Assembly: GCA_964016885.1 (NCBI GenBank)
Contig: OZ024754.1
Span: forward strand, 15,624,001 to 15,688,000
Reading direction: 5' to 3'
Origin: Eledone cirrhosa
Taxonomy: Eukaryota
DNA: 64,000 nucleotides
Shown here: positions 17,404-61,497 of the stretch, one piece after another
Position numbering within the stretch: the stretch's first letter is position 1
How the letters are laid out: each line of letters opens with the position of its first letter
Notes under the pieces: generated by a model
Databases searched by the model: none
Seen by the model: only the letters and a program-made list of their open reading frames with translations
Told to the model about the DNA's origin: nothing
Made by a program: the position numbers and the translations under genes

Positions 17404-17499
17404 TTCATTACCCTTATATATACACATAGTATATATACATACACAACCTCACTTATACACATATACGCATAAGTTATATTACAATAATAATAAAGAATA

Positions 17500-17530
<31 letters not shown>

Positions 17531-17669
17531 TATACACACATATACACATATACATACATACACATACATATACATACATACATACACATACATACATACA
17601 CCTAAATATAAACATATATAAATACACACATACGAATAAAGACATATATTCACACATAGACACCTATAT

Positions 17670-17713
<44 letters not shown>

Positions 17714-17803
17714 ATATACACACACATACACATACATACACATATATATATATATATACACATACATACACACGCACACACATACAGACACACATACACA
17801 CTC

Positions 17804-17841
<38 letters not shown>

Positions 17842-25545: not shown

Positions 25546-25583
<38 letters not shown>

Positions 25584-25673
25584 GAGTGTGTATGTGTGTC
25601 TGTATGTGTGTGCGTGTGTATGTATGTGTATATATATATATATATGTGTATGTATGTGTATGTGTGTGTATAT

Positions 25674-25717
<44 letters not shown>

Positions 25718-25856
25718 ATATAGGTGTCTATGTGTGAATATATGTCTTTATTCGTATGTGTGTATTTATATATGTTTATATTTAGGTGTATGTATGTATG
25801 TGTATGTATGTATGTATATGTATGTGTATGTATGTATATGTGTATATGTGTGTATA

Positions 25857-25887
<31 letters not shown>

Positions 25888-25983
25888 TATTCTTTATTAT
25901 TATTGTAATATAACTTATGCGTATATGTGTATAAGTGAGGTTGTGTATGTATATATACTATGTGTATATATAAGGGTAATGAA

Positions 25984-26014
<31 letters not shown>

Positions 26015-26111
26015 CATGTCTGTATTTTATGTGTGTGTGTATATATATATATATGTGTATGTGTGTATATATGTATGTATATATGCATATATGTGTACGT
26101 GTGTGTATGTT

Positions 26112-26159
<48 letters not shown>

Positions 26160-26270
26160 TGGATGTTTGTATGTGTTTTCATGGTGGTATGAGTGTGGGA
26201 TATATATGTTTATGTATAAGTATATGTATGTGTATGTATATATATATGAGTCTATGTGTGTGTGTGTATA

Positions 26271-26321
<51 letters not shown>

Positions 26322-27097
26322 ATGTGTGTATGTGTTGCGCGTGTGTGTGTCCGTATTTTTATCTTTTTATATGTGTATGTGTATGTTCGTGTAAATGTAT
26401 GTGTATGTATGACAGTATAGGTATGTGTGTATGTATGTATGTGTAGATATCTCTATGTGCGCGTACATGTACGTATGTGTATGTATATCTGTATGCGCAT
26501 GTACATTATATTATATGTAATATATTTTATTGTTTTTATTTTTTTATTTTTTATTTTTCATAATTTATAGATACATTTATATTAGGCTGTCTGTCTGACA
26601 ACCTAATACTGACCCCTCCCCCCCCCTCCCACCTAATTTCTGTATCTTGATCTTGAAATGTGTGTACCAGTGTGTTTATGTGATTGACTTAATTTCTATT
26701 TGCTTATGATTTTATATCCACATATATAAATGTGAGTGGGGGGTGTGTGTGTGTTTGTGTGTTCGTGGTTATGTGTATATTTTATATATATACGCACATG
26801 TATGTGTGATTATACTGATATGTGTGAGTATGAAAAAAATATATTTATATGCTTGACTACATAAGTATCATTGCGTTTCTTATCAGCGCATTAAGCTTAC
26901 AGAGATATTAACCTTGAAATTTTTTATTTGCATCCATCTTTTTAGTATGCACATACATATTATACACACATTATTGTAAAATGTGTGTAGGGTTTTACAT
27001 GTATATACACACACCAAACTGCTTTTTAACCCTTTGTGTTTTCATTGGTCAATTTTGAACTGATATTTTGAATTGTTGTTATTATCAATAAATATAC

Positions 27098-27252
27098 TTC
27101 ATTATTTCTGAAGACGGCGTATATATGTGTTAGGTATGTATATTTAATCTTGATAATTTGTATAATTTTGTATAATTTTGTACATAGATCTGTTAAATAT
27201 GCATACCAATTATAGCACATATATGCCCTAGAAACGATCGTTAAATAGTGAA
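27098..27252 (+). ncRNA. Type I hammerhead ribozyme with ~115-nt stem II
   Basis: Stem I TTCATTATTT/AAATAGTGAA; CTGAAGA (27108); stem II GGCGTATATATGTGTTA/TAGCACATATATGCC and GGTATGTATATTTAA/TTAAATATGCATACC; GAAA (27231); palindromic ACGATCGT; GTT cleavage triplet. Confidence 0.82.
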
Positions 27253-27435
27253 CTTTTTTTGTTTAATATAAGGAATTGTTTGTTCATTATTTGTTTAATA
27301 TTTTATCTTGACTCTGTATACCGTTTATCTTTCACCGAAATTGGATTTTCATTACATCTCTTCTTTCCATGATATCCGGAATACATTGAGTTCTTCATAC
27401 GGATTGGACACTACCGTAAACTCTTGGTAGATTTA

Positions 27436-28228: not shown

Positions 28229-28279
28229 AGATTCTACAGGACTAGAACTGTTTCATTCTTGAGAAATCATCAGGAATCT
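28229..28279 (-). ncRNA. Type I hammerhead ribozyme in pLTR-like repeat (28142-28710, homologous to 38930-39357)
   Basis: Minus strand AGATTC-CTGATGA-T-TTC-TCAA-GAA-T-GAAA-CAG-TTCTAGTC-CTG-TA-GAATCT. Confidence 0.78.
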
Positions 28280-30454: not shown

Positions 30455-30570
30455 TATATATATATATATATATATACACTCATACATATACATATATATA
30501 TATATAGATATAATATAATATAATAAAATAACAGGAGGCTGGACTTGTGTAAATCCTTGAAAAGTTTATT

Positions 30571-30628
30571 ATACTATGATCATTTCAATGACCGGGTTCC
30601 GTATGAATCCGATGGGATCATCAGGTAT
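30571..30628 (-). ncRNA. Type I hammerhead ribozyme
   Basis: Minus strand ATAC-CTGATGA-..CGGATTC-ATACG-GAACCCG..-GAAA-TGATCA-TA-GTAT. Confidence 0.68.
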
Positions 30629-31708
30629 TCGAAATATAATAAATGAATGTAACAGATAAAATTCATGGGGCTGAAAATCATAGACCCGAGGACAACCGAC
30701 CATCTAGCATCTTCCACTTTAGCCGGTCGCCCTTAAGTGCTGTCCATTCGGCCTACTTAAGGCCATCTGGTGAGGGGGCCAAAGCTTATAGTGTGCTACT
30801 AACCTCCCGGTCAAAGAGAAGAAAAACAGAAAGGAAGAAGAAGAAAAGTCAACGTTAATGTCATGCTACAAGAAAAAAGACAGAAAGAAAGAGGAAGAAA
30901 AGTCAGCATTAATGCTATGCTACAGTCTGGCCAGGAACTGCCGCGAAAAAAGTTATTCTAAAGGACCCATATCTTAACAGAGGTATATATTATAACAGAG
31001 GTATATATATAGTGGGGGTCTACATGGTATAATGTGTGAGCAGAAGATTGGAACGTTAAATTGTTGTTTAGATTTATAGGATGAAGTTTAAAAAATTAAA
31101 GATTAACATTATAAAATAAAAAAATTAGAAAATTGAAAATTAAACAGTTTAAAAAAATTTTAAGGTTTTGGGTTGCGATGTTTAGTTAAAGAAAGAGTCT
31201 TTTATGAAGAAACTTTAATTGTATTATAGAGATCCTCTATAAGTTATCCGAGTGGGATGTAGAGTAAAGATTATGTCCTTGTTTAGCAGTCAAACAGCAT
31301 GAGGTGACTGCAGACTCCGGCCAGCCCATCCTAACCACGTGTCAGCCATTCCGAGTGAGATCGCCTCGCGAAAGATACGGAAATCAATTTTTCCAAGCAC
31401 TCTAGGAATATATTCCAGGCTTCAGGTGTGCTAGTGGGAAGTCAGCCATCGCCGTTAGGCCATCGTTATACCAAACGAGTACTATTAATTTACACATATA
31501 CATATATATACATATATATATATACATATATATACATACATTTATACATATACACACACACGTATACACACACACGTATACACACACACGTATGTACGTG
31601 TGTGTGGCCGACTGAACTCACTCGATATGCAAATTAGGCTGCTCAGCCGTTAATTTTCATAAGGAAAGTATATACTTTCGGACGTTCAACCATCTGGCAG
31701 AAAGGTAT

Positions 31709-32147: not shown

Positions 32148-33099
32148 ATTCTATTCTATTCTAAGGCGGGTAAAATTCCCGAGATCCAAGGACGAGTTCT
32201 CTCCAGCGGTCTCTGTCCCTTATTATCGCTGCCATGTCCTGCGTCTCCAACATACCAGTGTGTGTCCTTAGGGCATCAACATACGTTAACCTTGGTCTTC
32301 CTCTTCTAGTGTGTCCATGTAGGGGTTCCCAAAGGAGCACTGAGTGCAATGTCAACTCTGGATGTCGGTGAGCATGTCCAGCTAACCTCAATCTCCTCTG
32401 TGTCACTTTTGAGCTGACTTTTGGGATGCTCCCATACAGCTCTGAGTTTTTCATCCTCAGTGTATACTGATTAATGTTCAGAGCCCTCCTCAGCATTCTC
32501 GTGTAGCACCCATCCACCATCTGAGTGAGTTTCTTGGTCAGTGTCCAAGTCTCAGACCCATACAGCAGCACAGACTCCACTACAGCAATGAAGAGGCGGA
32601 TTTTCAGGTCTCTACTAAGGTCCGACTTCCACACCGATCTCAAGCTGTGGCACACCGCCCAGGCCTTGCTCTTCCTCTCAACCACATCATCTTCCGTATT
32701 CCCTATCTTTGCTCCCAAATACAGGAAGCCCTCAACAAATTCTAGCGGCTTCCCGCCTACATTAGTGATCCCCTCTGGCTTCTCAACATTCTCTACCAGA
32801 TATTTTGTCTTAATCTCATTCATTCTCAGCCCCACACTCATCGACACAGTCTCAACCTCCCGCATCAAATCCTCTGCCTCCTTCACTGTATTTGTCACCA
32901 AAACTATGTCGTCGGCAAATTCAGCATCCGATACCTTTTTCGCCCTAACTCTTCTGCTCTGAGCCGGTGCTACAGTAAAGCCAGAGTCCTGGTGTTTCTC
33001 CAGTGCAAGGCGCATACAATAGTCCACTACGATGATAAAAAGGTAGGGAGCCAATGTATCTCCCTGGAGCACTCCAGCCAGTATCTCAAAGAACTCTGT
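32148..33099 (-). mobile_element. RTE-group (RTE-X-like) LINE, 3' half of RT and C-terminus, (TAGAA)n tail
   Basis: GVLQGDTLAPYLF, EFADD, FLYLG, LLYGSETW, RRLRLAGH, RGRP. The stop codon runs directly into TAGAATAGAATAGAAT. Confidence 0.9.
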
Positions 33100-34750
33100 C
33101 CTGGGTATGACATTAAACTACTTCCAGTGGCAAGGCTCCAGTTCGGGAGTTCAGGAGTTGTGGGGAATGTGGAGTTACCCCTTAGTTGTCATGACTCCCA
33201 GGTCTGCCCTGGCCCGGGGTGGTAGTACCTGTTAGGGCTCCATTTATGGGTTAAATAACTACCTTATTCGAGTGGCGCCGGTAAGGTATTGTCAGCCATT
33301 GAAAATAAATATGGAGAGTCGATCTAACAGCACTATGGTTAGAGCCCCTAATTACACTGTCAAGGAGTAGCCTGGTCGTTATGACTCTGCTGACTTAGAG
33401 CCACAGAGAGGGCCAGTGGAGGATGGATCAGCTGTCTCTGAGACAAATATAAAGAATGCAGTTTTGTCCTGCAGAAGAGCCATCAAAATGGGCACTGAAT
33501 ATGAGGACTATTCGGACGCTGGAGAAGAAAGAGGAGTTGGGACATCTGTTCGAGGAGAGTGGTATACAGATACTTGCGATCCAAGAACACAGGATCCTAC
33601 ACGATGAGCCCGTGAGGAGTGTGATGATCGGGAAGAGGAGCCAGCTCATCACTACATCGGCAGTGAAGAACACAACAAATGCTGCAGTGGGAGGAGTGGG
33701 TTTTGTGTTCAGTGCAAAAACCAATCTGTTGGTGAGGGAAATAATGCCTATCTCCCCGCGAGTGTGGAGGGTGACCTTCAATGGAAACCCAAGACTGACA
33801 GTCGTCTCAGCCTATAGTCCAACCGAGGGGGACAGTGATGTGAGTGCGGAAGAGTTCCATGAGGAGGTGTGTAGAGCTGTCAACACCACTCAGGCACACA
33901 ATATCCTGCTTGTTTTGGGGGACTTCAATGCACATCTGAGTAAGGAGGGCAGTGAAGATCCTTGCTGGTACTTCCATGACAACACCAACCGAAATGGAAG
34001 ACTACTGAGAGACACCCTGCTGGAGGCGAACTTGATGGCGACCAACCTAAGGTTTAGGAGGAATCTGGGGAAAATGTGGACCTACATCTCAGATATGCAC
34101 CTGTCCAAGTCCCAGATTGATTTCATTCTGGTGAGGAAAAAGTGGCGGAATAGTGTTCTGAACACAGAACCATACAGCTATTTCAGTACACTGGGTAGTG
34201 ACCACCGGCTTGTTATGAGTGAGGTCCGAGTGAGCTTAAGAAAGAGCAAGGCTCGGCCTCGGAGAGCAATCTATGACTGGGGATCTTTCAAGGAAGATGA
34301 TAAGCTACAGGAGAGGTTCACAGTGGAAGTGAGAAACAGGTTTAGTGCTCTGTGTGGAGAGTCAGAGGAGAGAGAGATTGGATGGACTGAGGAGAGTGTG
34401 ACGAGGAGGTGCGGCCACTTCACCAATGCAGTGGCGGAAGCAAGTGAAACCCTGGTGCCGAGGAAAAAGAACAAAGGGAAGCACGTCAGCTCTGCAAACC
34501 CAAAAGTCTCAGCAGCCAGAGAACACCTGAAAGCTGCCAAGGACCAATTCTATGCTGATCCTACGGAGGAGAGGATGGAGACTGTGGAGGTGATGAGGGA
34601 AGAACTCTGTACCGCTTACACTGAGGTCAGAGAGGAGGCACTGATAGAGAAGATCAGAAGTGTGGAGAGAGCGGTTGACAGATCTGGATGTAAGGAGAGC
34701 TGGATGATCATGAACGAGATCACAGGGAGGAAGAGAAGGTGTTCGAGTAA
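33097..34750 (+). mobile_element. 5' UTR + APE-type endonuclease of an RTE-group LINE (inverted relative to its RT half)
   Basis: ORF 33456-34784 has NMRT, ILAIQEHR, GGVGF, SAYSPT, LGDFNA, NRNG, QIDFIL and SDH. The 5' UTR 33097-33260 resembles an abundant octopus SINE body (from memory). Confidence 0.9.
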
Positions 34751-35400
34751 AATGAAATTCCAGCACAAGCCAAGGTGCCTCTGACATAGTCCCGGTGCCG
34801 CATTTTTAGTTTGTGTGGTGGCCGCTTTCCTTCACACAGTTCTCCGTAGTAAGTTGCTTCGGAATGTGACCATCAGACAAGCGGACCACGTGTCCACACC
34901 ACCTCAATTGGTGCCGAAAGATCCTGCTCTCAATAATCACGCACCTGTTCTGTTCGAGAACTTCCAAATCACTGAAGAACATTTTCCATCGCACCCCAAG
35001 TAACTTACGAAGAGATTGTTGGTGAAATTTCTCCAGTTCGTTGGGGTGCTTTCTGTATGTGACCCACGTTTCACAAGCATAAAGCAAAGACGAAACGACA
35101 CAAATCAGATACACTTTCACCTTGGTTTCGATAGTGATAGCTCGTCTGGACCATAAACGTTGATGCAGCCGCCCAAAAGCATCACTGGCTTTCCTGATTC
35201 TTAAGGATATCTCATCATCAAGTGTGCATGAATTGTTCAGTGTACTACCAAGATAAACAAACTTGTCAGCAACTTTTAGTCTCTTTCCGTACACGTACAC
35301 CCTTGGTGTAGTGTATTCTTTTCCAGGTGCTGGCTGATACATCACAGCAGTCTTTTCCAAGCTTATTGTGAGACCCAAAGCGCTGCAAGCTTCATAAAAA
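34750..35400 (-). pseudogene. Second RTE (BovB-like) LINE RT C-terminal fragment
   Basis: LGLTISLEKT, KFVYLGSTL, DDEISLRIRKASDAFGRL, LLYACETW, QLRWCGHVVRL; frameshift near 34845. Confidence 0.85.
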
Positions 35401-36691: not shown

Positions 36692-37039
36692 ATTTAGCTC
36701 AGAGTTCGAGCTACACTCGCGCCTTACATTCTTTGAAAGCATTGTCCGGCTGAGATTTTTCTGCACCGTCATTCGAAAATGACAAGAATTTGTCCAGACA
36801 TGTTTTCTTCTCTTGTTGAGGTCTTGCCACTAGTGGCTCCTCTGCAGTAAATCAGTCCTGATGTTTTTCTCTGCATAAACCTATATACAGAAATAATTAC
36901 ATACATACATATATACATACATGATGGCTGCCCCCTCGTTATCGAGTATGGATTTTTGGATGGCCGTTGACTCTTATGAGTTCTTCCGCCCTTTGTCAGG
37001 TTTTGTTTTTGTCCTGCATGGTGTCCAAATTCAATCACT

Positions 37040-37533
37040 CCAGTTCCTATTATAATTAATCCTCGGCCACTTGCAAATAACTCTGTTAATAATCATAATT
37101 GTAAATGCAACTGCTGTATTAGAACTAATTGTCCTCTTAGTAATTTCTGCCTCGATAAAAACCTAATATATGAAGGTAAAGTGGTAACTAGTAACAATTC
37201 CTATACCTACATTGGCTCTACTTCTACCTCTTTTAAAGCAAGACTCTACAATCATTCTTCTACATTTAAATATTCACTTAAAAGGATCAGCACCGCACTC
37301 TCAGAACTTATTTGGTCTTTAAAAGCCAAAAACATTAATTACGAAATTTCTTGGCGTAAAATTTGCAACGCGTTCCATACTCCAATGCTTCCATATCTAG
37401 GGTTTGTAATTTATGTCTAGCTGAAAAATTTACCATTATCTCGAATTTCAACTCTTTAATAAATAGACGTACAGATTTATTTGGACTTTGTAATCATAAA
37501 TCTTTCAAGACCTTTCACAAAGTATACAGCTAA
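37040..37533 (+). pseudogene. 5'-truncated PLE GIY-YIG endonuclease
   Basis: CNCCIRTNCPLSNFCLDKNLIYEGKV..TYIGSTSTSFKARLYNHSSTF..TALSELIWSLK; frameshift near 37380; CNLCLAEK and CNHK downstream. Confidence 0.85.
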
Positions 37534-38429
37534 TGTCCTATAACATATTCCACGAATAACGGTTAATTTTTTACACATACTTATTTTTTACACATATATT
37601 TTTTCACACACTTTTTTTCACACATATTTCATTATATTCTACAATGTATTAATTCAGTTTTCCCAGCATATTTTAAGCCTTTCAATTTTTTTTTGTTCTC
37701 TTAAGCCTTTCACCTTTTTTTTCTCTTAAGCCTTTCACCTTTTTTCTCTATAGCCTTAAATTTTCGTTCAAACCTTCGTAGATTTTGTAAACAAAGTATG
37801 ACCTCATATGTCTTTCTACGTTTAAACCTTTCTAGCAATTTCCTTTATTTACTTGTTGATATAAAATAATAATTAAATAATATACCCCACATATATAGAT
37901 TTTTAATAGTAATTTTTAATTATGACATACATAGACTATTCTTATTTTTATTTTTTATTCTATTCTATCTTATTTTATTTTATTTTATTTTAAAAACCTT
38001 TTTTTTTAAACCTTTTTTATAATTATTTTAATTTTATTTTATTTTATTTTATTTTATTAATACATTTTTACACTTCTTAATCCAATTTTTAGTATTCAAA
38101 CCCAATATAAAATAATATACCCAGTTTCTATATTCTAGACCTCTGATATTTGTAATATTCGCACATACACCTCATCAATTTTTTTTTTTTTTTCATCCAT
38201 TATTTACAGCTGTTTTCATTTTGACAGCGTTCCTCTCTCTCTCTCTCTTTCTCTTTCTCTCTCCTCCTTCTTTCTTTCTTTTTTTCTCTCTTCTATTTCT
38301 TTTTCCTTTTTCCTTCTTCTTTCCTTTTCTTCATTTTTCCTATTTTTCTCTTACTTTTATATTTTTGTCATATGTAGAATGGACACTTTCTTGTTCACAA
38401 GTGTTTTTAGACCTCATATCATGTTACCT

Positions 38430-38498
38430 TATTTTATCTGATGAGAACACAATTTTGTCCCAGGATGATGTTGTTTTCGAAATGCGCATAATAAAATA
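38430..38498 (+). ncRNA. Type I hammerhead ribozyme (TGCGCA family), 3' pLTR of the 37040 PLE
   Basis: TATTTTAT-CTGATGA-GAACAC..GTTTTC-GAAA-TGCGCA-TA-ATAAAATA. Confidence 0.82.
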
Positions 38499-39221
38499 TA
38501 TGGAACTTTTTTTTAACCATCTTTTAATTTCTTCTTTAATATATACTCCAGTTCTACCAACTGTTGAGTGTTACTTATCTGATATATGCATAGTTTTATT
38601 GTTCTACAATATTACTCACCTCCTACATATATATATTTATATGTATATATATATATGTATGCGTATGTATGTACATATATATGTATATATATATATATAT
38701 ATATATTTGTATATATGTATGTGTGTATGTACCATTATGTATGTTTGTTTTGTGTGTGACAGCCTGTGTGTGCGTATATGTGTGTGTACGTGTGTAAGTG
38801 GGCGAGTGTGTGAATGTGTTTGTCGACACCTGGAATATATATTGAGAGAATCTTCACAATAAAGGTTCTCACCCCAACACTTGAATCTGTTGAGGGAACC
38901 CTTTCTGCCTTTCTCACCCTTACTTCAGCCTTAAAGATTTAGCTTCTAAAGAATTTCCCTTTCTTTAAACCAATGAACCCCACCCATCTTGTAGACACCT
39001 GTCTTACAGACATTGTTACTTTAAGTGATAAACAAGGATTGGTATTCCAAATTTGAATTTGTTTACAGTATTCTTTCTGCCTTTGATAATATTATAGCTT
39101 TTAATGAACTCCCTTTTCCTTAAATCCTTCAACCAATAACCTACACCCATACCAATCCCCACCCTCTCCTACTACCAGAAAAGAAAAGATATAAATACCA
39201 CCACCTACTTGGACAGCCGCC

Positions 39222-39393: not shown

Positions 39394-39451
39394 GTTGTCT
39401 GATGAGGTCATATCTGTTGCATAATGGTTATCCCGAAATATATATAATAGC
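39394..39451 (+). ncRNA. Type I hammerhead ribozyme
   Basis: GTTGT-CTGATGA-GG..CC-GAAA-TATATA-TA-ATAGC. Confidence 0.62.
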
Positions 39452-39947: not shown

Positions 39948-39954
<7 letters not shown>

Positions 39955-41034
39955 GAGAGACGTAAAATAAGAAAATTATAAAATTAACTTACTTACTAAA
40001 AAATCACTTCCAACTAATTAGTTTCTGGAATGGAGTAAATATATTTTCAGAAGAAACACATAGAAAAATCATTCCGTCATCAGGAAAGTCTTTTTCCGTA
40101 TAGGTCTCCAGGCATAGCGAGGACACTGGAAACTTATTAAAAAAATAATTCAGTGCAATGGAAATAGCAAAGCGTGGACTGGATTCCAAGCCATTGAGAA
40201 AATCACTGCCTCCTCGTCTGTGGCAAATTCAAAAAGAATCAATCACGTGACATCGAGGTCAATCAGTGGAAAGCGAGTGGTTATTAAGACAGCGGCCAGC
40301 TTACTACCATAGTAGCAGTCATGGCCAAATATTGCTCGACAAATGAATTGGAGATAATTATAAGGAATTTATATCTAGTAACATTTATATACACACAGAT
40401 GCATATCAATGCTAGCAAATATATAGGTTTTGTCTTATTAACAATATATTTGCTAGCATTGATATGCATCTGTGTGTATATAAATGTTACTAGATATAAA
40501 TTCCTTATAATTATCTCCAATTCATTTGTCGAGCAATATTTGGCCATGACTGCTACTATGGCAGTAAACTGGCCGCTGTCTTAATAACCACTCGCTTTCC
40601 ACTGATTGACCTCGATGTCACGTGATTGATTCTTTTTGAATTTGCCACAGACGAGGAGGCAGTGATTTTCTCAATGGCTTGGAATCCAGTCCACGCTTTG
40701 CTATTTCCATTGCACTGAATTATTTTTTTAATAAGTTTCCAGTGTCCTCGCTATGCCTGGAGACCTATACGGAAAAAGACTTTCCTGATGACGGTATGAT
40801 TTTTCTATGTGTTTCTTCTGAAAATATATTTACTCCATTCCAGAAACTAATTAGTTGGAAGTGATTTTTTAGTAAGTAAGTTAATTTTATAATTTTCTTA
40901 TTTTACGTCTCTCATATTATTGTTCTGCAACCCCATGCATTGAACCACATTGTTAATAAGACAAAACCTATATATTTGCTAGCATTGATATGCATCTGTG
41001 TGTATATAAATGTTACTAGATATAAATTCCTTAT
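39948..41034. repeat. ~970-bp palindrome (39948-40920) plus direct-repeat tail (40950-41034) of a 526-bp non-coding unit
   Basis: Mirror ORFs sum to 80868; ~19-nt spacer at 40425-40443; ATATATTTGCTAGC recurs at 40444 and 40970. Confidence 0.92.
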
Positions 41035-41690: not shown

Positions 41691-41761
41691 TATTTTATCT
41701 GATGAGAACGCAAATATCATCCTATGATTATATTTGTTTTTGAAATGCGCATAATAAAATA
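41691..41761 (+). ncRNA. Type I hammerhead ribozyme (TGCGCA family)
   Basis: TATTTTAT-CTGATGA-GAACGCAAATATCAT..ATGATTATATTTGTTTTT-GAAA-TGCGCA-TA-ATAAAATA. Confidence 0.8.
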
Positions 41762-42021
41762 CATGGAACTCTTTTAACCATCTTTTGATTTTATATTATT
41801 TATACATATATATACATATACATATATACATACATACATACACATACATATATACATATACCTATATATATATAAATATATTCAGGTTTGTGGTTCACCA
41901 CTGTATAGAGCTGGTCTATTCCGTATGGTCAATCGTAATGTAATAATATAGAGAGTACTCAACGTAAAGCAGTTCAACCGTCTTTGTTTTTGTAGTTGGT
42001 GGTGCTATTACGGAGTTAAAT

Positions 42022-42188
42022 ATTATAATGAAATGACAGGAGGATGGACTTGTGTAAATCCTTGAAAGGTTTATTATACTATGATCATTTCAATGACAGG
42101 GTTCCGTATGAATCCGGTCATTGAAATGATCATAGTATAATAAACCTTTCAAGGATTTACACAAATCCAGCCTCCTGTCATTTCATTA

Positions 42189-42192
<4 letters not shown>
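42022..42192. repeat. 171-bp hairpin derived from the 30530-30610 pLTR
   Basis: Arms pair around loop CGTAT (42105-42109). Confidence 0.92.
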
Positions 42193-42251
<59 letters not shown>

Positions 42252-42283
42252 AGATCAAAAGATGGTTAAAGGAGTTCAATATA

Positions 42284-42350
42284 TTTTATTATGCGCATTT
42301 CAAAAACAAACATCATCAAACAATAATATTTGTGTTTTCATCAGATAAAA
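42284..42350 (-). ncRNA. Type I hammerhead ribozyme (TGCGCA family, left arm)
   Basis: Reverse complement of 42618-42684. Confidence 0.75.
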
Positions 42351-42617
42351 CAGGAGAACATGATATGAAGGCTAAAAAAACACTTGTTGATAGTGCAGTT
42401 TTAAATCAACATATGAAAAGTGGTTTTAGATTGATGTGTGATATTGGGAAAAATATTTTATTTTATTTTATTTCATCCTTTTCTCTCCCCCCCCCCCCCT
42501 CTCTAAATAAAATATTTTTCCCAATATCACACATCAATCTAAAACCACTTTTCATATGTTGATTTAAAACTGCACTATCAACAAGTGTTTTTTTAGCCTT
42601 CATATCATGTTCTCCTG

Positions 42618-42684
42618 TTTTATCTGATGAAAACACAAATATTATTGTTTGATGATGTTTGTTTTTGAAATGCGCATAATAAAA
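42618..42684 (+). ncRNA. Type I hammerhead ribozyme (TGCGCA family, right arm)
   Basis: TTTTAT-CTGATGA-AAACACAAATATTATT..GATGATGTTTGTTTTT-GAAA-TGCGCA-TA-ATAAAA. Confidence 0.75.
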
Positions 42685-42809
42685 TATATGAACTCCTTTA
42701 ACCATCTTTTGATCTTATATTATGCATACTCCAGTCCCACAAACTGTAGAGTGCTTCTTATCCGATATCTGCATTGCTTTATTGTACTACAATAAAACTC
42801 ACCTCCTAC

Positions 42810-42889
<80 letters not shown>

Positions 42890-44583: not shown

Positions 44584-47500
44584 CACTAACACTTACCTAC
44601 ACACACTAACACCTACCTACACACACTAACACCTACCTACACACTACCACCTACCTACACACACTGCCACCTACCTACACACACTACCACCTACCTACAC
44701 ACTACCACCTTACTACACACACTAACACCTACCTACACATTACCACCTACCTACACACTACCACCTACCTACACACTAGCACCTACCTACACACTAACAC
44801 CTACCTACACACTACCACCTACCTACACACACTGCCACCTACCTACACACACTACCACCTACCTACACACTACCACCTTACTACACACACTAACACCTAC
44901 CTACACATTACCACCTACCTACACACTACCACCTACCTACACACTACCATCTACCTACACACTACCACCTACCTACACACTACCACCTACCTACACACTA
45001 CCATCTACCTACACACTACCACCTACCTACACACTACCACCTACCTACACACTACCACCTACCTACACACTACCACCTACCTACACACTAGCACCTACCT
45101 ACACACTACCACCTACCTACACACACTGCCACCTACCTACACACACTACCACCTACCTACACACTACCACCTTACTACACACACTAACACCTACCTACAC
45201 ATTACCACCTACCTACACACTACCACCTACCTACACACTACCACCTACCTACACACTACCATCTACCTACACACTACCACCTACCTACACACTACCACCT
45301 ACCTACACACTAGCACCTACCTACACACTACCACCTACCTACACACTACCACCTACCTACACACTACCACCTACCTACACACTACCACCTACCTACACAC
45401 TACCACCTACCTACACACTACCACCTACCTACACACTACCACCTACCTACACACACTACCACCTACCTACACACTACCACCTACCTACACACTAGCACCT
45501 ACCTACACACTACCATCTACCTACACACTACCACCTACCTACACACTACCACCTACCTACACACTAGCACCTACCTACACACTACCACCTACCTACACAC
45601 TACCACCTACCTACACACTACCACCTACCTACACACTACCACCTACCTACACACCACCACCTACCTACACACTACCACCTACCTACACACTACCACCTAC
45701 CTACACACTACCACCTACCTACACACTAGCACCTACCTACACACTACCATCTACCTACACACTACCACCTACCTACACACTACCACCTACCTACACACTA
45801 CCACCTACCTACACACTAGCACCTACCTACACACTACCACCTACCTACACACTACCACCTACCTACACACTAGCACCTACCTACACACTACCATCTACCT
45901 ACACACTACCACCTACCTACACACTACCACCTACCTACACACTAGCACCTACCTACACACTACCACCTACCTACACACTACCACCTACCTACACACTACC
46001 ACCTACCTACACACTACCACCTACCTACACACTACCACCTACCTACACACTACCACCTACCTACACACTACCACCTACCTACACACTACCACCTACCTAC
46101 ACACTAGCACCTACCTACACACTACCACCTACCTACACACTACCACCTACCTACACACTAGCACCTACCTACACACTACCATCTACCTACACACTACCAC
46201 CTACCTACACACTACCACCTACCTACACACTACCACCTACCTACACACTACCACCTACCTACACACTACCACCTACCTACACACTACCACCTACCTACAC
46301 ACTACCACCTACCTACACACTACCACCTACCTACACACTACCACCTACCTACACACTACCACCTACCTACACACTACCACCTACCTACACACTACCACCT
46401 ACCTACACACTAGCACCTACCTACACACTACCACCTACCTACACACTACCACCTACCTACACACTAGCACCTACCTACACACTACCATCTACCTACACAC
46501 TACCACCTACCTACACACTACCACCTACCTACACACTAGCACCTACCTACACACTACCACCTACCTACACACTACCACCTACCTACACACTACCACCTAC
46601 CTACACACCACCACCTACCTACACACCACCACCTACCTACACACTACCACCTACCTACACACCACCACCTACCTACACACTACCACCTACCTACACACTA
46701 CCACCTACCTACACACACTACCACCTACCTACACACTACCACCTACCTACACACTAACACCTACCTACACACCACCACCTACCTACACACTACCACCTAC
46801 CTACACACACTACCACCTGCCTACACACTAACACCTACCTACACACAACCACCTACCTACACACTACCACCTACCTACACACAGCCACCTACCTACACAC
46901 TACCACCTACCTACACACCACCACCTACCTACACACTAACACCTACCTACACACTACCACCTACCTACACACTGCCACCTACCTACACACTACCACCTAC
47001 CTACACACTACCACCTACCTACACACTACCACCTACCTACACACACTACCACCTACCTACACACTACCACCTACCTACACACCACCACCTACCTACACAC
47101 TAACACCTACCTACACACTACCACCTACCTACACACTACCACCTACCTACACACTGCCACCTACCTACACACTACCACCTACCTACACACTACCACCTAC
47201 CTACACACACTACCACCTACCTACACACTACCACCTACCTACACACTAACACCTACCTACACACCACCACCTACCTACACACTACCACCTACCTACACAC
47301 ACTACCACCTGCCTACACACTAACACCTACCTACACACAACCACCTACCTACACACTACCACCTACCTACACACAGCCACCTACCTACACACTACCACCT
47401 ACCTACACACCACCACCTACCTACACACTAACACCTACCTACACACTACCACCTACATACACACTGCCACCTACCTACACACTACCACCTACCTACACAC

Positions 47501-50500
47501 TACCACCTACCTACACACTACCACCTACCTACACACACTACCACCTACCTACACACTACCACCTACCTACACACCACCACCTACCTACACACTAACACCT
47601 ACCTACACACTACCACCTACCTACACACTGCCACCTACCTACACACTACCACCTACCTACACACTAACACCTACCTACACACTACCACCTACCTACACAC
47701 TACCACCTACCTACACACTACCACCTACCTACACACTACCACCTACCTACACACTACCACCTACCTACACACCACCACCTACCTACACACTACCACCTAC
47801 CTACACACTACCACCTACCTACACACTACCACCTACCTACACACCACCTCCTACATACACACTACCACCTACCTACACACACTACCACCTACCTACACAC
47901 CACCACCTACCTACACACTACCACCTACCTACACACCACCACCTACCTACACACCACCACCTACCTACACACCACCACCTACCTACACACCACCACCTAC
48001 CTACACACTACCACCTACCTACACACTACCACCTACCTACACACTACCACCTACCTACACACTACCACCTACCTACACACCACCACCTACCTACACACTA
48101 CCACCTACCTACACACTACCACCTACCTACACACCATCACCTACCTACACACTACCACCTACCTACACACCACCACCTACCTACACACCACCACCTACCT
48201 ACACACCACCACCTACCTACACACCACCACCTACCTACACACTAACACCTACCTACACACTACCACCTACCTACACACTGCCACCTACCTACACACTACC
48301 ACCTACCTACACACTACCACCTACCTACACACCACCACCTACCTACACACTACCACCTACCTACACACTACCACCTACCTACACACCATCACCTACCTAC
48401 ACACTACCACCTACCTACACACCACCACCTACCTACACACCACCACCTACCTACACACCACCACCTACCTACACACTGCCACCTACCTACACACTACCAC
48501 CTACCTACACACTACCACCTACCTACACACTACCACCTACCTACACACCATCACCTACCTACACACTACCACCTACCTACACACCACCACCTACCTACAC
48601 ACCACCACCTACCTACACACCACCACCTACCTACACACCACCACCTACCTACACACCACCACCTACCTACACACCACCACCTACCTACACACTACCACCT
48701 ACCTACACACTGCCACCTACCTACACACACTACCACCTACCTACACACACTACCACCTACCTACACACTACCACCTACCTACACACTACCACCTACCTAC
48801 ACACTACCACCTACCTACACACTAACACCTACCTACACACTACCACCTACCTACACACCACCACCTACCTACACACTACCACCTACCTACACACTAACAC
48901 CTACCTACACACTACCACCTACCTACACACCACCACCTACCTACACACCACCACCTACCTACACACTACCACCTACCTACACACCACCACCTACCTACAC
49001 ACTACCACCTACCTACACACTACCACCTACCTACACACTGCCACCTACCTACACACTACCACCTACCTACATACTAACACCTACCTACACACTACCACCT
49101 ACCTACACACTACCACCTACCTACACACTGCCACCTACCTACACACTACCACCTACCTACACACTACCACCTACCTACACACACTACCACCTACCTACAC
49201 ACACTACCACCTACCTACACACACTACCAGCTACCTACACACACTACCACCTACCTACACACACTACCACCTACCTACACACACTGCCACCTACCTACAC
49301 ACTAGCACCTACCTACACACTAACACCTACCTACACACTACCACCTACCTACACACTGCCACCTACCTACACACCATCACCTACCTACACACTTCCACCT
49401 ACCTACACACCACCACCTACCTACACACCACCACCTACCTACACACTACCACCTACCTACACACCACCACCTACCTACACACCACCACCTACCTACACAC
49501 CACCACCTACCTACACACTACCACCTACCTACACACTACCACCTACCTACACACCATCACCTACCTACACACTACCACCTACCTACACACCACCACCTAC
49601 CTACACACCACCACCTACCTACACACTACCACCTACCTACACACCACCACCTACCTACACACTACCACCTACCTACACACTACCACCTACCTACACACTG
49701 CCACCTACCTACACACTACCACCTACCTACACACTACCACCTACCTACACACCACCACCTACCTACACACTACCACCTACCTACACACTACCACCTACCT
49801 ACACACCATCACCTACCTACACACTACCACCTACCTACACACCACCACCTACCTACACACCACCACCTACCTACACACCACCACCTACCTACACACTACC
49901 ACCTACCTACACACTACCACCTACCTACACACTAACACCTACCTACACACTACCACCTACCTACACACTACCACCTACCTACACACCACCACCTACCTAC
50001 ACACTACCACCTACCTACACACTACCACCTACCTACACACTGCCACCTACCTACACACTACCACCTACCTACACACTACCACCTACCTACACACTGCCAC
50101 CTACCTACACACTACCACCTACCTACACACTACCACCTACCTACACACTAACACCTACCTACACACTACCACCTACCTACACACTACCACCTACCTACAC
50201 ACCACCACCTACCTACACACTACCACCTACCTACACACTACCACCTACCTACACACCACCACCTACCTACACACCACCACCTACCTACACACTACCACCT
50301 ACCTACACACTACCACCTACCTACACACTACCACCTACCTACACACTACCACCTACCTACACACCACCACCTACCTACACACCACCACCTACCTACACAC
50401 TACCACCTACCTACACACTACCACCTACCTACACACTGCCACCTACCTACACACTACCACCTACCTACACACTAACACCTACCTACACACTACCACCTAC

Positions 50501-53500
50501 CTACACACTACCACCTACCTACACACTGCCACCTACCTACACACTACCACCTACCTACACACTAACACCTACCTACACACCACCACCTACCTACACACTA
50601 CCACCTACCTACACACTACCACCTACCTACACACTGCCACCTACCTACACACTACCACCTACCTACACACTGCCACCTACCTACACACTACCACCTACCT
50701 ACACACTAACCACCTACCTACACACCACCACCTACCTACACACTACCACCTACCTACACACTACCACCTACCTACACACTACCACCTACCTACACACTGC
50801 CACCTACCTACACACTACCACCTACCTACACACTAACACCTACCTACACACCACCACCTACCTACACACTAACACCTACCTACACACCACCACCTACCTA
50901 CACACTACCACCTACCTACACACTACCACCTACCTACACACTACCACCTACCTACACACTACCACCTACCTACACACTACCACCTACCTACACACTACCA
51001 CCTACCTACACACTACCACCTACCTACACACTGCCACCTACCTACACACTAACACCTACCTACACACTACCACCTACCTACACACTACCACCTACCTACA
51101 CACTAACACCTACCTACACACTACCACCTACCTACACACTAACACCTACCTACACACCACCACCTACCTACACACTACCACCTACCTACACACTACCACC
51201 TACCTACACACCACCACCTACCTACACACTACCACCTACCTACACACTACCACCTACCTACACACTACCACCTACCTACACACTACCACCTACCTACACA
51301 CCATCACCTACCTACACACTACCACCTACCTACACACCACCACCTACCTACACACCACCACCTACCTACACACCACCACCTACCTACACACCAACCACCT
51401 ACCTACACACTAACACCTACCTACACACTACCACCTACCTACACACTGCCACCTACCTACACACTACCACCTACCTACACACTAACACCTACCTACACAC
51501 TACCACCTACCTACACACTAACACCTACCTACACACCACCACCTACCTACACACTACCACCTACCTACACACTACCACCTACCTACACACTAACACCTAC
51601 CTACACACTACCACCTACCTACACACTGCCACCTACCTACACTCTACAACCTACCTACACACACTACTACCTACACACTACCACCTACCTACACACTGCA
51701 ACCTACCTACACACTACCACCTACCTACACACTAACACCTACCTACACACTACCACCTACCTACACACTGCCACCTACCTACACACTACCACCTACCTAC
51801 ACACTAACACCTACCTACACACTACCACCTACCTACACACTAACACCTACCTACACACCACCACCTACCTACACACTACCACCTACCTACACACTACCAC
51901 CTACCTACACACTAACACCTACCTACACACCACCACCTACCTACACACTGCCACCTACCTACACACTAACACCTACCTACACACTACCACCTACCTACAC
52001 ACTGCCACCTACCTACACACTACCACCTACCTACACACTACCACCTACCTACACACTACCACCTACCTACACACTACCACCTACCTACACACTACCACCT
52101 ACCTACACACTACCACCTACCTACACACCACCACCTACCTACACACTACCACCTACCTACACACCTACCACCTACCTACACACCACCACCTACCTACACA
52201 CCTACCACCTACCTACACACTACCACCTACCTACACACTACCACCTACCTACACACCACCACCTACCTACACACTACCACCTACCTACACACTACCACCT
52301 ACCTACACACACTACCACCTACCTACACACTACCACCTACCTACACACACTACCACCTACCTACACACTACCACCTACCTACACACTACCACCTACCTAC
52401 ACACTAACACCTACCTACACACTACCACCTACCTCTACACTAACACCTACCTACACACTACCACCTACCTAGACACTACCACCTACCTACACACTAACAC
52501 CTACCTACACACTACCACCTACCTACACACTAACACCTACCTACACACTACCACCTACCTCTACACTAACACCTACCTACACACTACCACCTACCTACAC
52601 ACTACCACCTACCTACACACTACCACCTACCTACACACTACCACCTACCTACACACCACCACCTACCTACACACTACCACCTACCTACACACTACCACCT
52701 ACCTACACACTACCACCTACCTACACACTACCACCTACCTACACACTACCACCTACCTACACACTACCACCTACCTACACACTACCACCTACCTACACAC
52801 TAACACCTACCTACACACTACCACCTACCTACACACTAACACCTACCTACACACTACCACCTACCTACACACTACCACCTACCTACACACTACCACCTAC
52901 CTACACACTACCACCTACCTACACACTACCACCTACCTACACACTACCACCTACCTACACACTACCACCTACCTACACACTACCACCTACCTACACACTA
53001 CCACCTACCTACACACTACCACCTACCTACACACTACCACCTACCTACACACTACCACCTACCTACACACTACCACCTACCTACACACTACCACCTACCT
53101 ACACACTACCACCTACCTACACACTACCACCTACCTACACACTACCACCTACCTACACACTACCACCTACCTACACACTACCACCTACCTACACACTACC
53201 ACCTACCTACACACTACCACCTACCTACACACTACCATCTACCTACACACTACCACCTACCTACACACTACCACCTACCTACACACTACCACCTACCTAC
53301 ACACTACCACCTACCTACACACTGCCACCTACCTACACATTACCACCTACCTACACACTACCACCTACCTACACACTAACACCTACCTACACACTACCAC
53401 CTACCTCTACACTAACACCTACCTACACACTACCACCTACCTACACACTACCACCTACCTACACACTACCACCTACCTACACACTACCACCTACCTACAC

Positions 53501-56500
53501 ACCACCACCTACCTACACACTACCACCTACCTACACACTACCACCTACCTACACACACTACCCTACCTACACACTACCACCTACCTACACACTACCATCT
53601 ACCTACACACTACCATCTACCTACACACTACCACCTACCTACACACTGCCACCTACCTACACACTACCACCTACCTACACACCAACCACCTACCTACACA
53701 CTAACACCTACCTACACACTACCACCTACCTACACACTACCACCTACCTACACACACTACCACCTACCTACACACTACCACCTACCTACACACACCACCT
53801 ACCTACACACTACCACCTACCTACACACTACCACCTACCTACACACTACCACCTACCTACACACTACCACCTACCTACACACTACCATCTACCTACACAC
53901 TACCACCTACCTACACACTGCCACCTACCTACACACTACCACCTACCTACACACTACCACCTACCTACACACTACCACCTACCTACACACACTACCACCT
54001 ACCTACACACACTACCACCTACCTACACACTACCACCTACCTACACACTACCACCTACCTACACACTAACACCTACCTACACACTACCACCTACCTACAC
54101 ACTAACACCTACCTACACACTAACACCTACCTACACACTAACACCTACCTACACACTAACACCTACCTACACACTACCACCTACCTACACACTACCACCT
54201 ACCTACACACTACCACCTACCTACACACTACCACCTACCTACACACACTACCACCTACCTACACACTACCACCTACCTACACACTAACACCTACCTACAC
54301 ACTACCACCTACCTACACACTACCACCTACCTACACACTACCACCTACCTACACACTACCACCTACCTACACACTACCACCTACCTACACACACTACCAC
54401 CTACCTACGACACTACCACCTACCTACACACTACCACCTACCTACACACTACCACCTACCTACACACTACCACCTACCTACACACTCACCTACCTACACA
54501 CTACCACCTACCTACACACTACCACCTACCTACACACACTACCACCTACCTACACACTACCACCTACCTACACACTAACACCTACCTACACACTACCACC
54601 TACCTACACACTACCACCTACCTACACACACTAACACCTACCTACACTCTACCACCTACCTACACACTACACCTACCTACACACTACCACCTACCTACAC
54701 ACTACCACCTACCTACACACTACCACCTACCTACACACTACCACCTACCTACACACACTAACACCTACCTACACTCTACCACCTACCTACACACTGCCAC
54801 CTACCTACACACTACCACCTACCTACACACTACCACCTACCTACACACTACCACCTACCTACACACACTAACCACCTACCTACACTCTACCACCTACCTA
54901 CACACTGCCACCTACCTACACACTACCACCTACCTACACACTACCACCTACCTACACACTACCACCTACCTACACACTAACACCTACCTACACACACTAC
55001 CACCTACCTACACACTAACACCTACCTACACACTACCACCTACCTACACACTACCACCTACCTACACACTACCACCTACCTACACACTACCACCTACCTA
55101 CACACTACCACCTACCTACACACTACACCTACCTACACACTACACCTACCTACACACTACCACCTACCTACACACTACCACCTACCTACACACTACCACC
55201 TACCTACACACTACCACCCTACCTACACACTACCACCCTACCCTACACACTACCACCTACCTACACAACTACCACCTACCTACACACTACCACCTACCTA
55301 CACACTACACCTACCTACACACTACACCTACCTACACACTACCACCTACCTACACACTACCACCTACCTACACACTACCACCTACCTACACACTACCACC
55401 TACCTACACACTACCACCTACCTACACACTACCACCTACCTACACACTACCAACCTACCTACACACTAACCACCTACACCACTACACAACCTACACACTA
55501 CCACCTACCTACACACTACCACCTACCTACACACTACCACTACCTACACACTACCACCTACCTACACACTACCACCTACCTACACACTACCACCTACCTA
55601 CACACTACCACCTACCTACACACTACCACCTACCTACACACTACCACCTACCTACACACTACCACCTACCTACACACTACCACCTACCTACACACCACCA
55701 CTACCTACACACTACCACCTCACCTACCTACACACTACCACCTACCTACACACTACCACCTACCTACACACTACCACCTACCTCTACACTACCACCTACC
55801 TACACACTACCACCTACCTACACACTACCACCTACCTACACACTACCACCTACCTACACACTACCACCTACCTACACACTACCACCTACCTACACACTAC
55901 CAACCTACCTACACCACTACCACCTACCTACACACTACCACCTACCTACACACTACCACCTACCTACACACTACCACCTACCTACACACTACCACCTACC
56001 TACACACTACCACCTACCTACACACTGCCACCTACCTACACACTACCACCTACCTACACACTACCACCTACCTACACACTAACACCTACCTACACACTAC
56101 CAACCTACCTACACACTACCACCTACCTACACACACTACCACCTACCTACACACTACCACCTACCTACACACCACCACCTACCTACACACTACCACCTAC
56201 CTACACACTACCACCTACCTACACACACTACCACCTACCTACACACTACCACCTACCTACACACTACCACCTACCTACACACTACCACCTACCTACACAC
56301 TACCACCTACCTACACACTACCACCTACCTACACACACTACCACCTACCTACACACTACCACCTACCTACACACACTACCACCTACCTACACACCCTACC
56401 ACCTACCTACACACTACCACCTACCTACACACTACCACCTACCTACACACTAACACCTACCTACACACTACCACCTACCTACACACTACCACCTACCTAC

Positions 56501-59500
56501 ACACTAACACCTACCTACACACTACCACCTACCTACACACCTACCACCTACCTACACACTACCACCTACCTACACACTACCACCTACCTACACACTACCA
56601 CCTACCTACACACTACCACCTACCTACACACACTACCACCTACCTACACACTACCACCTACCTACACACTAACACCTACCTACACACTACCACCTACCTA
56701 CACACTACCACCTACCTACACACTACCACCTACCTACACACTACCACCTACCTACACACTACCACCTACCTACACACTACACCTACCTAACACTACCACC
56801 TACCTACACACTACCACCTACCTACACACTACCACCTACCTACACACTACCACCTACCTACACACTACCACCTACCTACACACTACCACCTACCTACACA
56901 CTACCACCTACCTACACACACTACCACCTACCTACACACTACCACCTACCTACACACTACCACCTACCTACACACTACCACCTACCTACACACTACCACC
57001 TACCTACACACTACCACCTACCTACACACTACCACCTACCTACACACACTACACCTACCTACACACTACCACCTACCTACACACTACCACCTACCTACAC
57101 ACTACCACCTACCTACACACTACCACCTACCTACAACACTAACACCTACCTACACTCTACCACCTACCTACACACTGCCACCTACCTACACACTACCACC
57201 TACCTACACACTACCACCTACCTACACTCTACCACCTACCTACACACTACACCTACCTACACACTACCACCTACCTACACACTACCACCTACCTACACAC
57301 TACCACCTACCTACACACTACCACCTACCTACACACTACCACCTACCTACACACTACCACCTACCTACACACTACCACCTACCTACACACTACCACCTAC
57401 CTACACACTACCACCTACCTACACACTACACCTACCTACACACTACCACCTACCTACACACTACCACCTACCTACACACTACCACCTACCTACACACTAA
57501 CACCTACCTACACACTACCACCTACCTACACACTACCACCTACCTACACACTACCACCTACCTACACACTACCACCTACCTACACACTACCACCTACCTA
57601 CACACTACACCTACCTACACACACTACCACCTACCTACACACTACCACCTACCTACACACTACCACCTACCTACACACTACCACCTACCTACACACTACA
57701 CCTACCTACCACACTACACCTACCTACACACTACCACCTACCTACACACTACCACCTACCTACACACACTACCACCTACCTACACACTAACACCTACCTA
57801 CACACTACCACCTACCTACACATACCTACTACACACTAACACCTACCTACACACACACCTACTACACACTACCACCTAACCTACACACTACCACCTCACC
57901 CTACCTACACACTACCACCTACCTACCACACTACCACCTACCTACACACTACCACCTACCTACACACTACCACCTACCTACACACTAACACCTACCTACA
58001 CACTACCACCTACCTACACACACTACCACCTACCTACACACTACCACCTACCTACACACTACCACCTACCTACACACTACCACCTACCTACACACTACCA
58101 CCTACCTACACACTACCACCTACCTACACACTCACCACCTACCTACACACCTACCACCTACTACACACTACCACCTACCTACACACTACCACCTACCTAC
58201 ACACTACCACCTACCTACACACACTACCACCTACCTACACACTACCACCTACCTACACACTACCACCTACCTACACACTACCACCTACCTACACACTACC
58301 ACCTACCTACACACTACCACCTACCTACCACACTACCACCTACCTACAACACTACCACCTACCTACACACTACCACCTACCTACACACTACCACCTACCT
58401 ACACACTACCACCTACCTACACACTACCACCTACCTACACACACTTCCACCTACCTACACACTACCACCTACCTACCACACTACCACCTACCTACACACT
58501 ACCACCTACCTACACACTACCACCTACCTACACACTACCACCTACCTACACACACTTCCACCTACCTACACACTACCACCTACCTACACACTACCACCTA
58601 CCTACACACTACACCTACCTACACACACTACCACCTACCTACACACTACCACCTACCTACACACTACCACCTACCTACACACTACCACCTACCTACACAC
58701 TACCACCTACCTACACACTACACCTACCTACACACTACCACCTACCTACACACTACCACCTACCTACACACTACCACCTACCTACACACTACGCACCTAC
58801 CTACACACTACCACCTACCTACACACATCACCTACCTACACACTACCCTACTACACAACACCTACCTACACACACTACCACCTACCCTACACCACTACCA
58901 CCTACCTACACACCTACCACCTACCTACACACCTACCACCTACCTACACACCACCACCTACCTACACACTACCACCTACTACCACTACCACTACCTACAC
59001 ACACACCTACCTACACACCACACCTACCTACACACTACCACCTACCTACACACTACCACTACCTACACACTAACACCTACCTACACACACTTCACCTACC
59101 TACACACACCACCAACCTACACCACACCTACCACACCCACCTACCTACACACTACACCTACCTACACACACCACCTACCTACACACACAACACCTACCTA
59201 CACACACCACCACCTACACACACTACCACCTACCTACACACACTACCACCTACCTACACACTACCACCTACCTACACACAACCACCTACCTACACCTACA
59301 CCTACCTACACACTACCACCTACCTACACACTACACCTACCTACACACCACCACCTACCTACACACCACCACCTACCTACACACCACCACCAACCTACAC
59401 ACACTACCACCTACCTACACACACTACCACCTACCTACACACTACCACCTACCTACACACTACCACCTACCTACACACTACCACCTACCTACACACTACC

Positions 59501-61297: not shown

Positions 61298-61497
61298 NNN
61301 NNNNNNNNNNNNNNNNNNNNNNNNNNNNNNNNNNNNNNNNNNNNNNNNNNNNNNNNNNNNNNNNNNNNNNNNNNNNNNNNNNNNNNNNNNNNNNNNNNNN
61401 NNNNNNNNNNNNNNNNNNNNNNNNNNNNNNNNNNNNNNNNNNNNNNNNNNNNNNNNNNNNNNNNNNNNNNNNNNNNNNNNNNNNNNNNNNNNNNNNN
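61298..61497. other. Assembly gap (200 N)
   Basis: Run of N of round length, typical of a scaffolding join. Confidence 0.99.

Follow-up and report, generated by a model that had tools for sequence, protein, structure and literature searches.

The sequence at 42022-42192 of the window (the whole 64,000-nucleotide stretch of the Eledone cirrhosa genome analysed here) is a palindrome that turns back on itself at the stem of a hammerhead ribozyme motif, and it raises the question of whether stem II of the ribozyme takes part in making the inverted ends of Penelope-like elements (PLEs), and by what kind of strand joining.

Structure of the insertion

The palindrome consists of two 83-nt arms around the 5-nt loop CGTAT (42105-42109), with 79/83 pairs matching; the mismatch G42101.T42113 is a wobble inherited from stem II, and the remaining mismatched pairs are 42098/42116, 42049/42165 and 42044/42170. 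This loop corresponds to that of stem II in a minimal hammerhead motif, of which CTGATGA is missing. To this extent the sequence-only reading, which had proposed a second arm that is the reverse complement of the left one, a centre at the stem II loop and loss of the CTGATGA box, was correct. It had also stated that the copy follows the family sequence and then inverts, which holds, and that the switch occurs at GAATCCG, which does not: the family sequence is kept through the loop to GAATCCGGT (42118) before the reverse complement of the left arm sets in, and alignment to a natural copy places the strand switch between 42113 and 42118. The 30.6-kb copy used for that comparison is a diverged variant; nearly all of the other 28 distinct best-matching loci read GAATCCGGTGATATCATCAG. 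As had also been proposed, stem II complementarity set the junction, since the G.T wobble of the stem survives in it.

The whole insertion exceeds the palindrome: the left arm carries an extra family "tail" of 140 nt (~41880-42021), which reaches (TA)n at its outer end, while the right arm is without it, ends with ATTATAAT (42192) and is followed by (TA)n. The 42-kb copy belongs to a non-coding Penelope-like family; it is 5'-truncated, arranged head-to-head and inserted in (TA)n. Its parts, and the non-inverted copy nearby, are as follows.

41880-42021, minus strand: 3' "tail" of the element, ~140 nt, on the left arm only, abutting (TA)n at ~41880; aligns to the tail of the natural copy L081; one-sided in 79/86 inverted loci
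42022-42104, minus strand: left arm, with the 3' part of the pLTR, the 3' strand of stem I, stem III and the 3' strand of stem II (motif scan and sequence reading); predicted cleavage site 42080/42079 and GAAA at 42088-42091 (coordinates from the sequence)
42105-42109, no strand assigned: loop CGTAT, stem II loop and centre of the palindrome (motif scan; RNA fold of the natural copy L081)
42110-42118, no strand assigned: junction patch, 5' strand of stem II continuing the left arm and pairing with 42096-42104 (9 bp, with one G.T in the family)
42119-42192, plus strand: right arm, inverted copy to the internal 3' end ATTATAAT, then (TA)n; has GAAA, stem III and the predicted cleavage site, without CTGATGA
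30515-31495, minus strand: non-inverted, tail-less, 5'-truncated copy of the same family (L001) with a complete but diverged hammerhead motif at 30575-30624 (motif scan and best-match comparison)

The hammerhead motif

The 30.6-kb copy contains on the minus strand a minimal type I hammerhead motif, running from CTGATGA at 30624 to the cleavage triplet at 30575, with a 4-bp stem I, CTGATGA, a long stem II, GAAA, a 1-bp stem III with a palindromic loop, and an AUA triplet. According to the motif scan, the CUGANGA and GAAA core, the U-H site and stems I-III are present in intact copies, while the palindrome is without CUGAUGA. Stems I and II appear in the predicted RNA fold of L081, and the stem II DNA hairpin of the same sequence has a predicted energy of -6.5 kcal/mol. 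Rfam gave no hammerhead match in the window, nor in L081 at E<=10, and the ribozyme call therefore rests on the anatomy of the motif; minimal PLE hammerhead motifs may lie outside the Rfam models. The available part of Cervera and de la Pena (2014, PMC4209133) describes minimal type I motifs of metazoan PLEs with a short stem I, a long stem II and a 1-bp stem III with a palindromic loop, all of which recur here; stem II of the present putative ribozyme differs in having 13 positions with three mismatches, including a U.U at its base. The same portion of that source already describes hammerheads paired on opposite strands at distances of 100-700 bp. Additional minimal hammerhead-like motifs, from several families, occur at 10629-10677, 28235-28273, 38438-38490, 39399-39446 and 41699-41753, and there are 10 distinct sites of this kind in the 64-kb window.

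The element families and their surroundings

The family of the palindrome (family 1) has about 5,500 exact matches of a 22-nt anchor beside stem II in the genome of 3.0 Gb. Its long copies (L079, L146-L156) measure ~2.4 kb, have the partial-tandem order pLTR-body-pLTR and are accompanied by adjacent inverted copies. No ORF with a PLE reverse transcriptase and a GIY-YIG endonuclease was found in the 2.4-kb unit of L079, in 12 body-anchored loci or in the long arms. Because this ORF is absent from the copies searched, family 1 works like, at most, a non-autonomous derivative of a Penelope-like element, for which we infer a mobilising protein from the architecture. Most ends of family-1 insertions lie at (TA)n, and target-site duplications are unreadable inside this repeat. 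PLE-type ORFs are present elsewhere in the window, at 19524-23862 and 36980-37530. A second hammerhead family, used for comparison (family 2), has 25,026 anchor matches; in its example at 37045-38625 an endonuclease-like C-terminus, a 3' region, a hammerhead motif (38438), a tail and (TA)n are contiguous, and the C-terminus gives a weak Pfam GIY-YIG match (E=0.026), below the cut-off.

Several other inverted insertions lie in the window. An inverted family-2 insertion at 42245-42810 adjoins the palindrome, with hammerhead motifs at 42290-42344 (minus) and 42624-42678 (plus), a centre at a poly-C stretch that lies ~140 nt upstream of the cores, and the tail on the right. A third hammerhead family forms an inverted repeat at 39948-41030 with 477-nt arms, of which the tail-less one reaches further in; its right-hand tail repeats the centre sequence, which suggests a short (~0.5 kb) tandem, retrozyme-like unit. 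The inverted PLE insertion at 16081-27430 has 5-kb arms that are 99-100% alike and include ~3 kb of microsatellite-rich DNA, possibly captured host sequence; PLE-type ORF fragments stand head-to-head in it (19524-22307, minus, and 22186-23862, plus), a 130-nt tail is found on the right end only, and the spacer, oriented as the tail-less arm, contains a 765-nt tandem duplication. LINE-type fragments with Pfam matches to reverse transcriptase and AP-endonuclease are located at 32161-34784, and extended arrays of two satellites, one with an 18-bp unit and one CA/T-rich with a short period (1-5800 and 44590-61300), dominated the whole-window repeat search. Elsewhere in the genome, the family-1 body of L074 (~1000-1700) shows, by eye and uncounted, a long stretch with numerous T-to-C differences from sister copies when read on the cDNA-sense strand (A-to-G for the RNA), the pattern that RNA hyper-editing before reverse transcription would give.

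Stem II as a junction hot spot

The exact 23-mer of the junction occurs at 8 places in 3.0 Gb and its reversed control at none, so the junction is not a product of chance. The 8 exact matches of the head-to-head junction against 0 for the opposite, tail-to-tail one agree with the polarity expected for cDNA ends. When head-to-head family-1 anchors 0-30 nt apart were collected, 15/34 loci had the in-register stem II spacing (14/33 without the 42-kb copy), against 4 loci for the next commonest spacing in this range; among the 21 loci with anchors 31-60 nt apart no spacing was shared by more than 3 loci. Altogether, 15/55 close family-1 junctions are at stem II, compared with 1 in 61 expected (p ~1e-14). 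The 16 stem II loci (these 15 and L036) have different flanks, belong to several subfamilies and show four loop variants; half of them (8/16) fall into one subfamily, which also has many copies with an intact hammerhead. On these grounds we regard them as mostly independent events. Family 2 has 119 loci with anchors 20-50 nt apart, and 22 among the 50 listed are in register on its own stem II. Close tail-to-tail pairs at CTGATGA were found at 7 loci, mostly of other families, with patterns that are not strictly comparable with those of the family-2 stem II scan; such junctions are rare but present.

The enrichment of inversion centres at stem II is thus strong in two families, but it concerns a small part of the inverted copies. 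In unselected samples, the first 100 anchor matches of each family, head-to-head pairs numbered 22 for family 1 (within 3.4 kb) and 27 for family 2 (within 2.5 kb). Stem II is the site of none of them, and by extrapolation stem II accounts for roughly 1% of the inverted copies in each family. With these 0/22 and 0/27 pairs, the proposal that folding on stem II is a direct mechanism for the inverted ends of PLEs is not supported.

Other junction sites

In the family-1 arm, self-complementarity is strongest at a hairpin that is not part of the ribozyme and lies 100 nt further in; 6 loci have an exact in-register junction there. From the two strongest patches within the first 330 nt of this arm, gaps of 240 and 23 are predicted, and both are hot spots. 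Family-1 centres that have no loop include ACCGGT at 4 loci, CATATG and TGA|TCA. Ten of the 27 family-2 pairs cluster at a spacing of 218-228, 9/10 of them centred on AACATATG; three of these centres are perfect loop-less palindromes and the rest have small inserts or changes. Perfect CATATG centres are present in 3/20 family-2 loci, with 6 more at the same site that have small inserts or changes, and this zero-loop palindrome, 75 nt from the hammerhead core, is the main hot spot of the family. One arm ends at the AACATATG site in several asymmetric family-2 junctions as well. The special role that had been proposed for ribozyme stems thus finds no support in a genome where a non-ribozyme hairpin has 6 exact junctions and a CATATG palindrome leads in family 2, and nothing points to a selected second function of the ribozyme. 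The site AACATATG (L158-L168, L173; ~110 nt inward of the anchor) is the dominant family-2 junction site, at which many arms end and where several centres hold a 4-6 nt insert matching nearby family sequence; it may mark where a short pLTR transcript begins.

Side of the tail

If a single cDNA snaps back, its second arm is copied from the first, and the arm that bears the loop or reaches further in must have the longer outer end. The side of the tail can serve as a test of this polarity because the tail is nearly always one-sided: among 86 inverted family-1 loci exactly one arm carries it in 79, both in 0 and neither in 7, and in an unselected family-2 set exactly one arm carries it in 19/20. 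The tail is on the arm without the loop in 5/15 callable family-1 stem II junctions (1/16 had no tail) and in 9/11 clearly oriented family-2 stem II junctions (13/17 by script; 20 of the 22 loci were retrieved), where loop orientations with margins of at least 2 were counted, 11 of 20 with tail, and where script and hand reading disagree on L132 and L142. It is on the shorter-reaching arm in 12/20 hand-classified family-1 junctions with an asymmetry of at least 20 nt and up to ~590 nt. The asymmetric, gap-23 and some short-gap junctions were read by hand, as automated mapping was contaminated by inverted reference arms, and the polarity count leaves out complex, nested, near-symmetric and tail-less loci (e.g. 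L013, L018, L029, L049, L060, L066, L072, L077, L079, L084 and L093) and the body-selected L146-L156. Some junctions recur unchanged with the tail on opposite sides (L052/L055; L103/L114). The 42-kb copy has its tail on the loop-bearing arm, i.e. the snap-back polarity, as do the junctions at the non-ribozyme hairpin (6/6, p=0.03 against 50:50).

Non-inverted copies end at either 3' site, the 30.5-kb copy at the internal one, and since tail-less non-inverted copies end there, the internal site behaves like a start of the first strand. Both arms of the inverted copies thus seem to begin at genuine first-strand start sites and their polarity is unconstrained, a pattern that later rearrangement of a hairpin gives as well. 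Comparison of the arms with each other revealed identical 72-nt outer segments in 6/15 stem II-centred and 6/18 unselected inverted copies; arms are identical in 14/26 copies with snap-back polarity and 9/30 with the opposite one (p=0.09, by a crude metric). The two arms of a copy come almost without exception from a single subfamily, and in many cases they have private variants in common (L037, L040, L042, L045, L046). A screen for chimeric arms flagged mostly truncated arms or indels, and clear chimeras are rare or absent; the candidate mixed-arm loci L109, L118 and L141 are explicable by mutation.

Joining of the two arms

In the 42-kb copy one arm ends at the tail end of the family and the other, 140 nt further in, at the internal 3' end; (TA)n adjoins each of them, and the junction uses a 9-bp complementary patch that is reused in independent copies. 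We give about even credence to the following reading: the insertion was made by two cDNAs, both primed by the target and each begun at a different one of the two start sites, which annealed to each other at whatever patch was complementary, rather than by one cDNA folding back. A PLE protein supplied in trans would cut both target strands, and each target 3' end would prime reverse transcription of the same RNA, or of RNA from the same source, one at each start site. Because both cDNAs have the same sense, they could pair only where the element is self-complementary (stem II, the other hairpin, short palindromes) or by 0-6 nt of microhomology; flaps would then be trimmed and each cDNA filled in on the other. 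The ribozyme stem would be an incidental annealing patch, and the product without CTGATGA a dead end. This reading draws support from the near 50:50 distribution of the tail side and from the loop-less centres, on which one strand could not fold; it uses only activities that have been demonstrated in vitro for the PLE of an anole, to which the joining step would be added. Against it count the snap-back polarity of the 42-kb copy and of the 6/6 hairpin junctions, the subfamily and private variants shared between arms, which snap-back explains for free, and, slightly, the trend in arm identity (14/26 versus 9/30), as expected if polarity was scrambled after insertion.

The reading that survives next best, which we consider doubtful, is that a primary hairpin, made by snap-back at a cDNA end further in, integrates and has its centre deleted or flipped later, so that stem II is the end point of a deletion and not a primer. 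Loss of the centre of long palindromes by deletion is an established process in other systems. Inverted duplication of stem II creates 9-nt direct repeats flanking the centre, and deletion between them would yield the observed structure in either orientation, while recombination between the arms can flip the loop; hot spots at every self-complementary patch, mixed polarity and shared private variants would all be explained, as would the weak tendency of anti-polarity copies to have arms that differ more from each other. However, outer arms are identical in 9/30 anti-polarity copies, perfect palindromes persist that have no loop and arms of more than 150 nt (L158, L162, L163), and the tail-less non-inverted copies indicate that the internal end needs no hairpin. 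Stem II-centred copies are also not older by the outer-arm comparison (6/15 versus 6/18): they are no more diverged between arms than unselected ones, which disfavours slow later trimming; early trimming may still have occurred.

Direct snap-back was the mechanism originally proposed for this locus: synthesis of the first cDNA strand halts within the ribozyme, and the strand pairs back on itself through stem II and primes its own second strand. That second strand would rejoin the target at ATTATAAT. As a model of these junctions we find it improbable; for the 42-kb copy alone, where the tail is on the loop-bearing arm as it should be, we hold it to be unlikely but worth keeping in mind. It fits 10/15 family-1 stem II junctions as well as that copy, its polarity is seen in 6/6 junctions at the second hairpin, the predicted DNA hairpin (-6.5 kcal/mol) is stable, and the available parts of two sources offer precedents, namely self-priming at palindromes with an antisense template (PMC3846280) and self-annealing of cDNA in L1 foldbacks (PMC11702581). 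Yet it is not supported as the rule, as it cannot give an arm whose outer end is longer than that of the arm from which it was copied (5/15, 9/11 and 12/20 cases), nor can it make the many loop-less centres, and stem II covers only ~1% of the inverted copies.

A palindromic master element, MITE-like, that arose once and was re-copied is very improbable: the share of one subfamily (8/16) among the stem II-centred loci and the occurrence of the tail on either side would suit it, but that subfamily has many copies with intact hammerheads, the 16 loci come from several subfamilies and have four variants of the loop, each pair of arms shares its own variants, and there are 0 copies with both tails. 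The spread over subfamilies largely refutes a single master. A fold-back artefact of assembly or amplification, to which the richness of the window in near-perfect inverted repeats and the lack of a read bridging the junction with 31 letters on both sides might point, is scarcely credible given that the arms differ at 3 sites beyond the wobble and end at two family-specific 3' ends instead of in copied host DNA, and that the junction is present in junction-specific unitigs of short reads and at 16 loci with different flanks. Unitigs of 33-46 nt cross the junction in two short-read runs of one sample (which may be that of the assembly itself); none of them has 31 letters on both sides, and none is locus-specific. 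Comparison of four sequencing runs with the whole insertion gave no spanning piece, and the junction was not found among the matches listed for the RAD-seq runs.

Relation to known systems

According to the available parts of Arkhipova et al. (2013, PMC3846280) and Craig et al. (2021, PMC8557442), insertion units of endonuclease-bearing PLEs comprise a partial tandem, an adjacent inverted 5'-truncated copy and a one-sided tail. The present family resembles them in its head-to-head inverted 3' ends, one-end tail, (TA)n targets, partial tandems (L079, L154) and junction palindromes, but has no ORF in the 2.4-kb unit and a tail of ~140 nt compared with 30-40. Self-priming at palindromic junctions was already proposed for PLEs in the accessible text of PMC3846280, and our polarity data argue against it; mapping of the junction to stem II of a ribozyme is not described in the portions of these two papers available to us, and the origin of the tandem and inverted ends is named as unresolved in that of PMC8557442.

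The closest biochemical counterpart is the anole Poseidon element PAc (Frangieh et al. 2024, PMC11167929), the protein of which is a predicted dimer, cleaves and extends both target strands in vitro, and uses two reverse-transcription start sites that delimit the tail; ribozyme cleavage is not needed. PAc shares with the family studied here the two 3' ends delimiting the tail, the AT-rich targets and a hammerhead upstream of the start sites, and takes uncut RNA as template. Extension of both strands is demonstrated in that paper, while second-strand synthesis and inverted repeats are left unexplained; the junction statistics come from the present genome. Twin priming and foldback junctions of L1 (PMC11702581, in the part available) are similar in that the second target end primes a second cDNA and the two are joined with little or no microhomology. 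The L1 cDNAs copy adjacent parts of the RNA, giving an inversion without duplication, whereas in the present family the two cDNAs would be made from one and the same 3' region, and the result would be an inverted duplication with its junction at hairpins of the element.

We found no paper that maps PLE junctions to hammerhead stem II or applies twin priming to PLEs, in a search that mostly left aside subscription journals and older papers on PLE models, so that such a model may be in print; the available parts of the octopus repeat-annotation paper PMC13282606 and of PMC2377424 contain nothing on junctions. Inverted pLTRs, one-sided tails and junction palindromes are already known, while the concentration of junctions at stem II in two families, the small proportion of inverted copies that it holds and the counting of polarity are new.

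The 42-kb palindrome itself is an ordinary dead-end insertion. The thousands of young copies make junction position and tail side countable, and these counts separate snap-back from the joining of two cDNAs and lead to sharp predictions that suit the in vitro system already available. We tentatively suggest, without putting it at an even chance, that PLEs may as a rule integrate by symmetric twin priming, in which both target strands would be extended by a dimer, with synthesis beginning at two fixed sites of one RNA, and the same-sense cDNAs would pair at hairpins of the element, stem II included. If this is true, one mechanism would account for the inverted pLTR, the one-sided tail and the junction palindromes, and a dedicated second-strand step would be unneeded.
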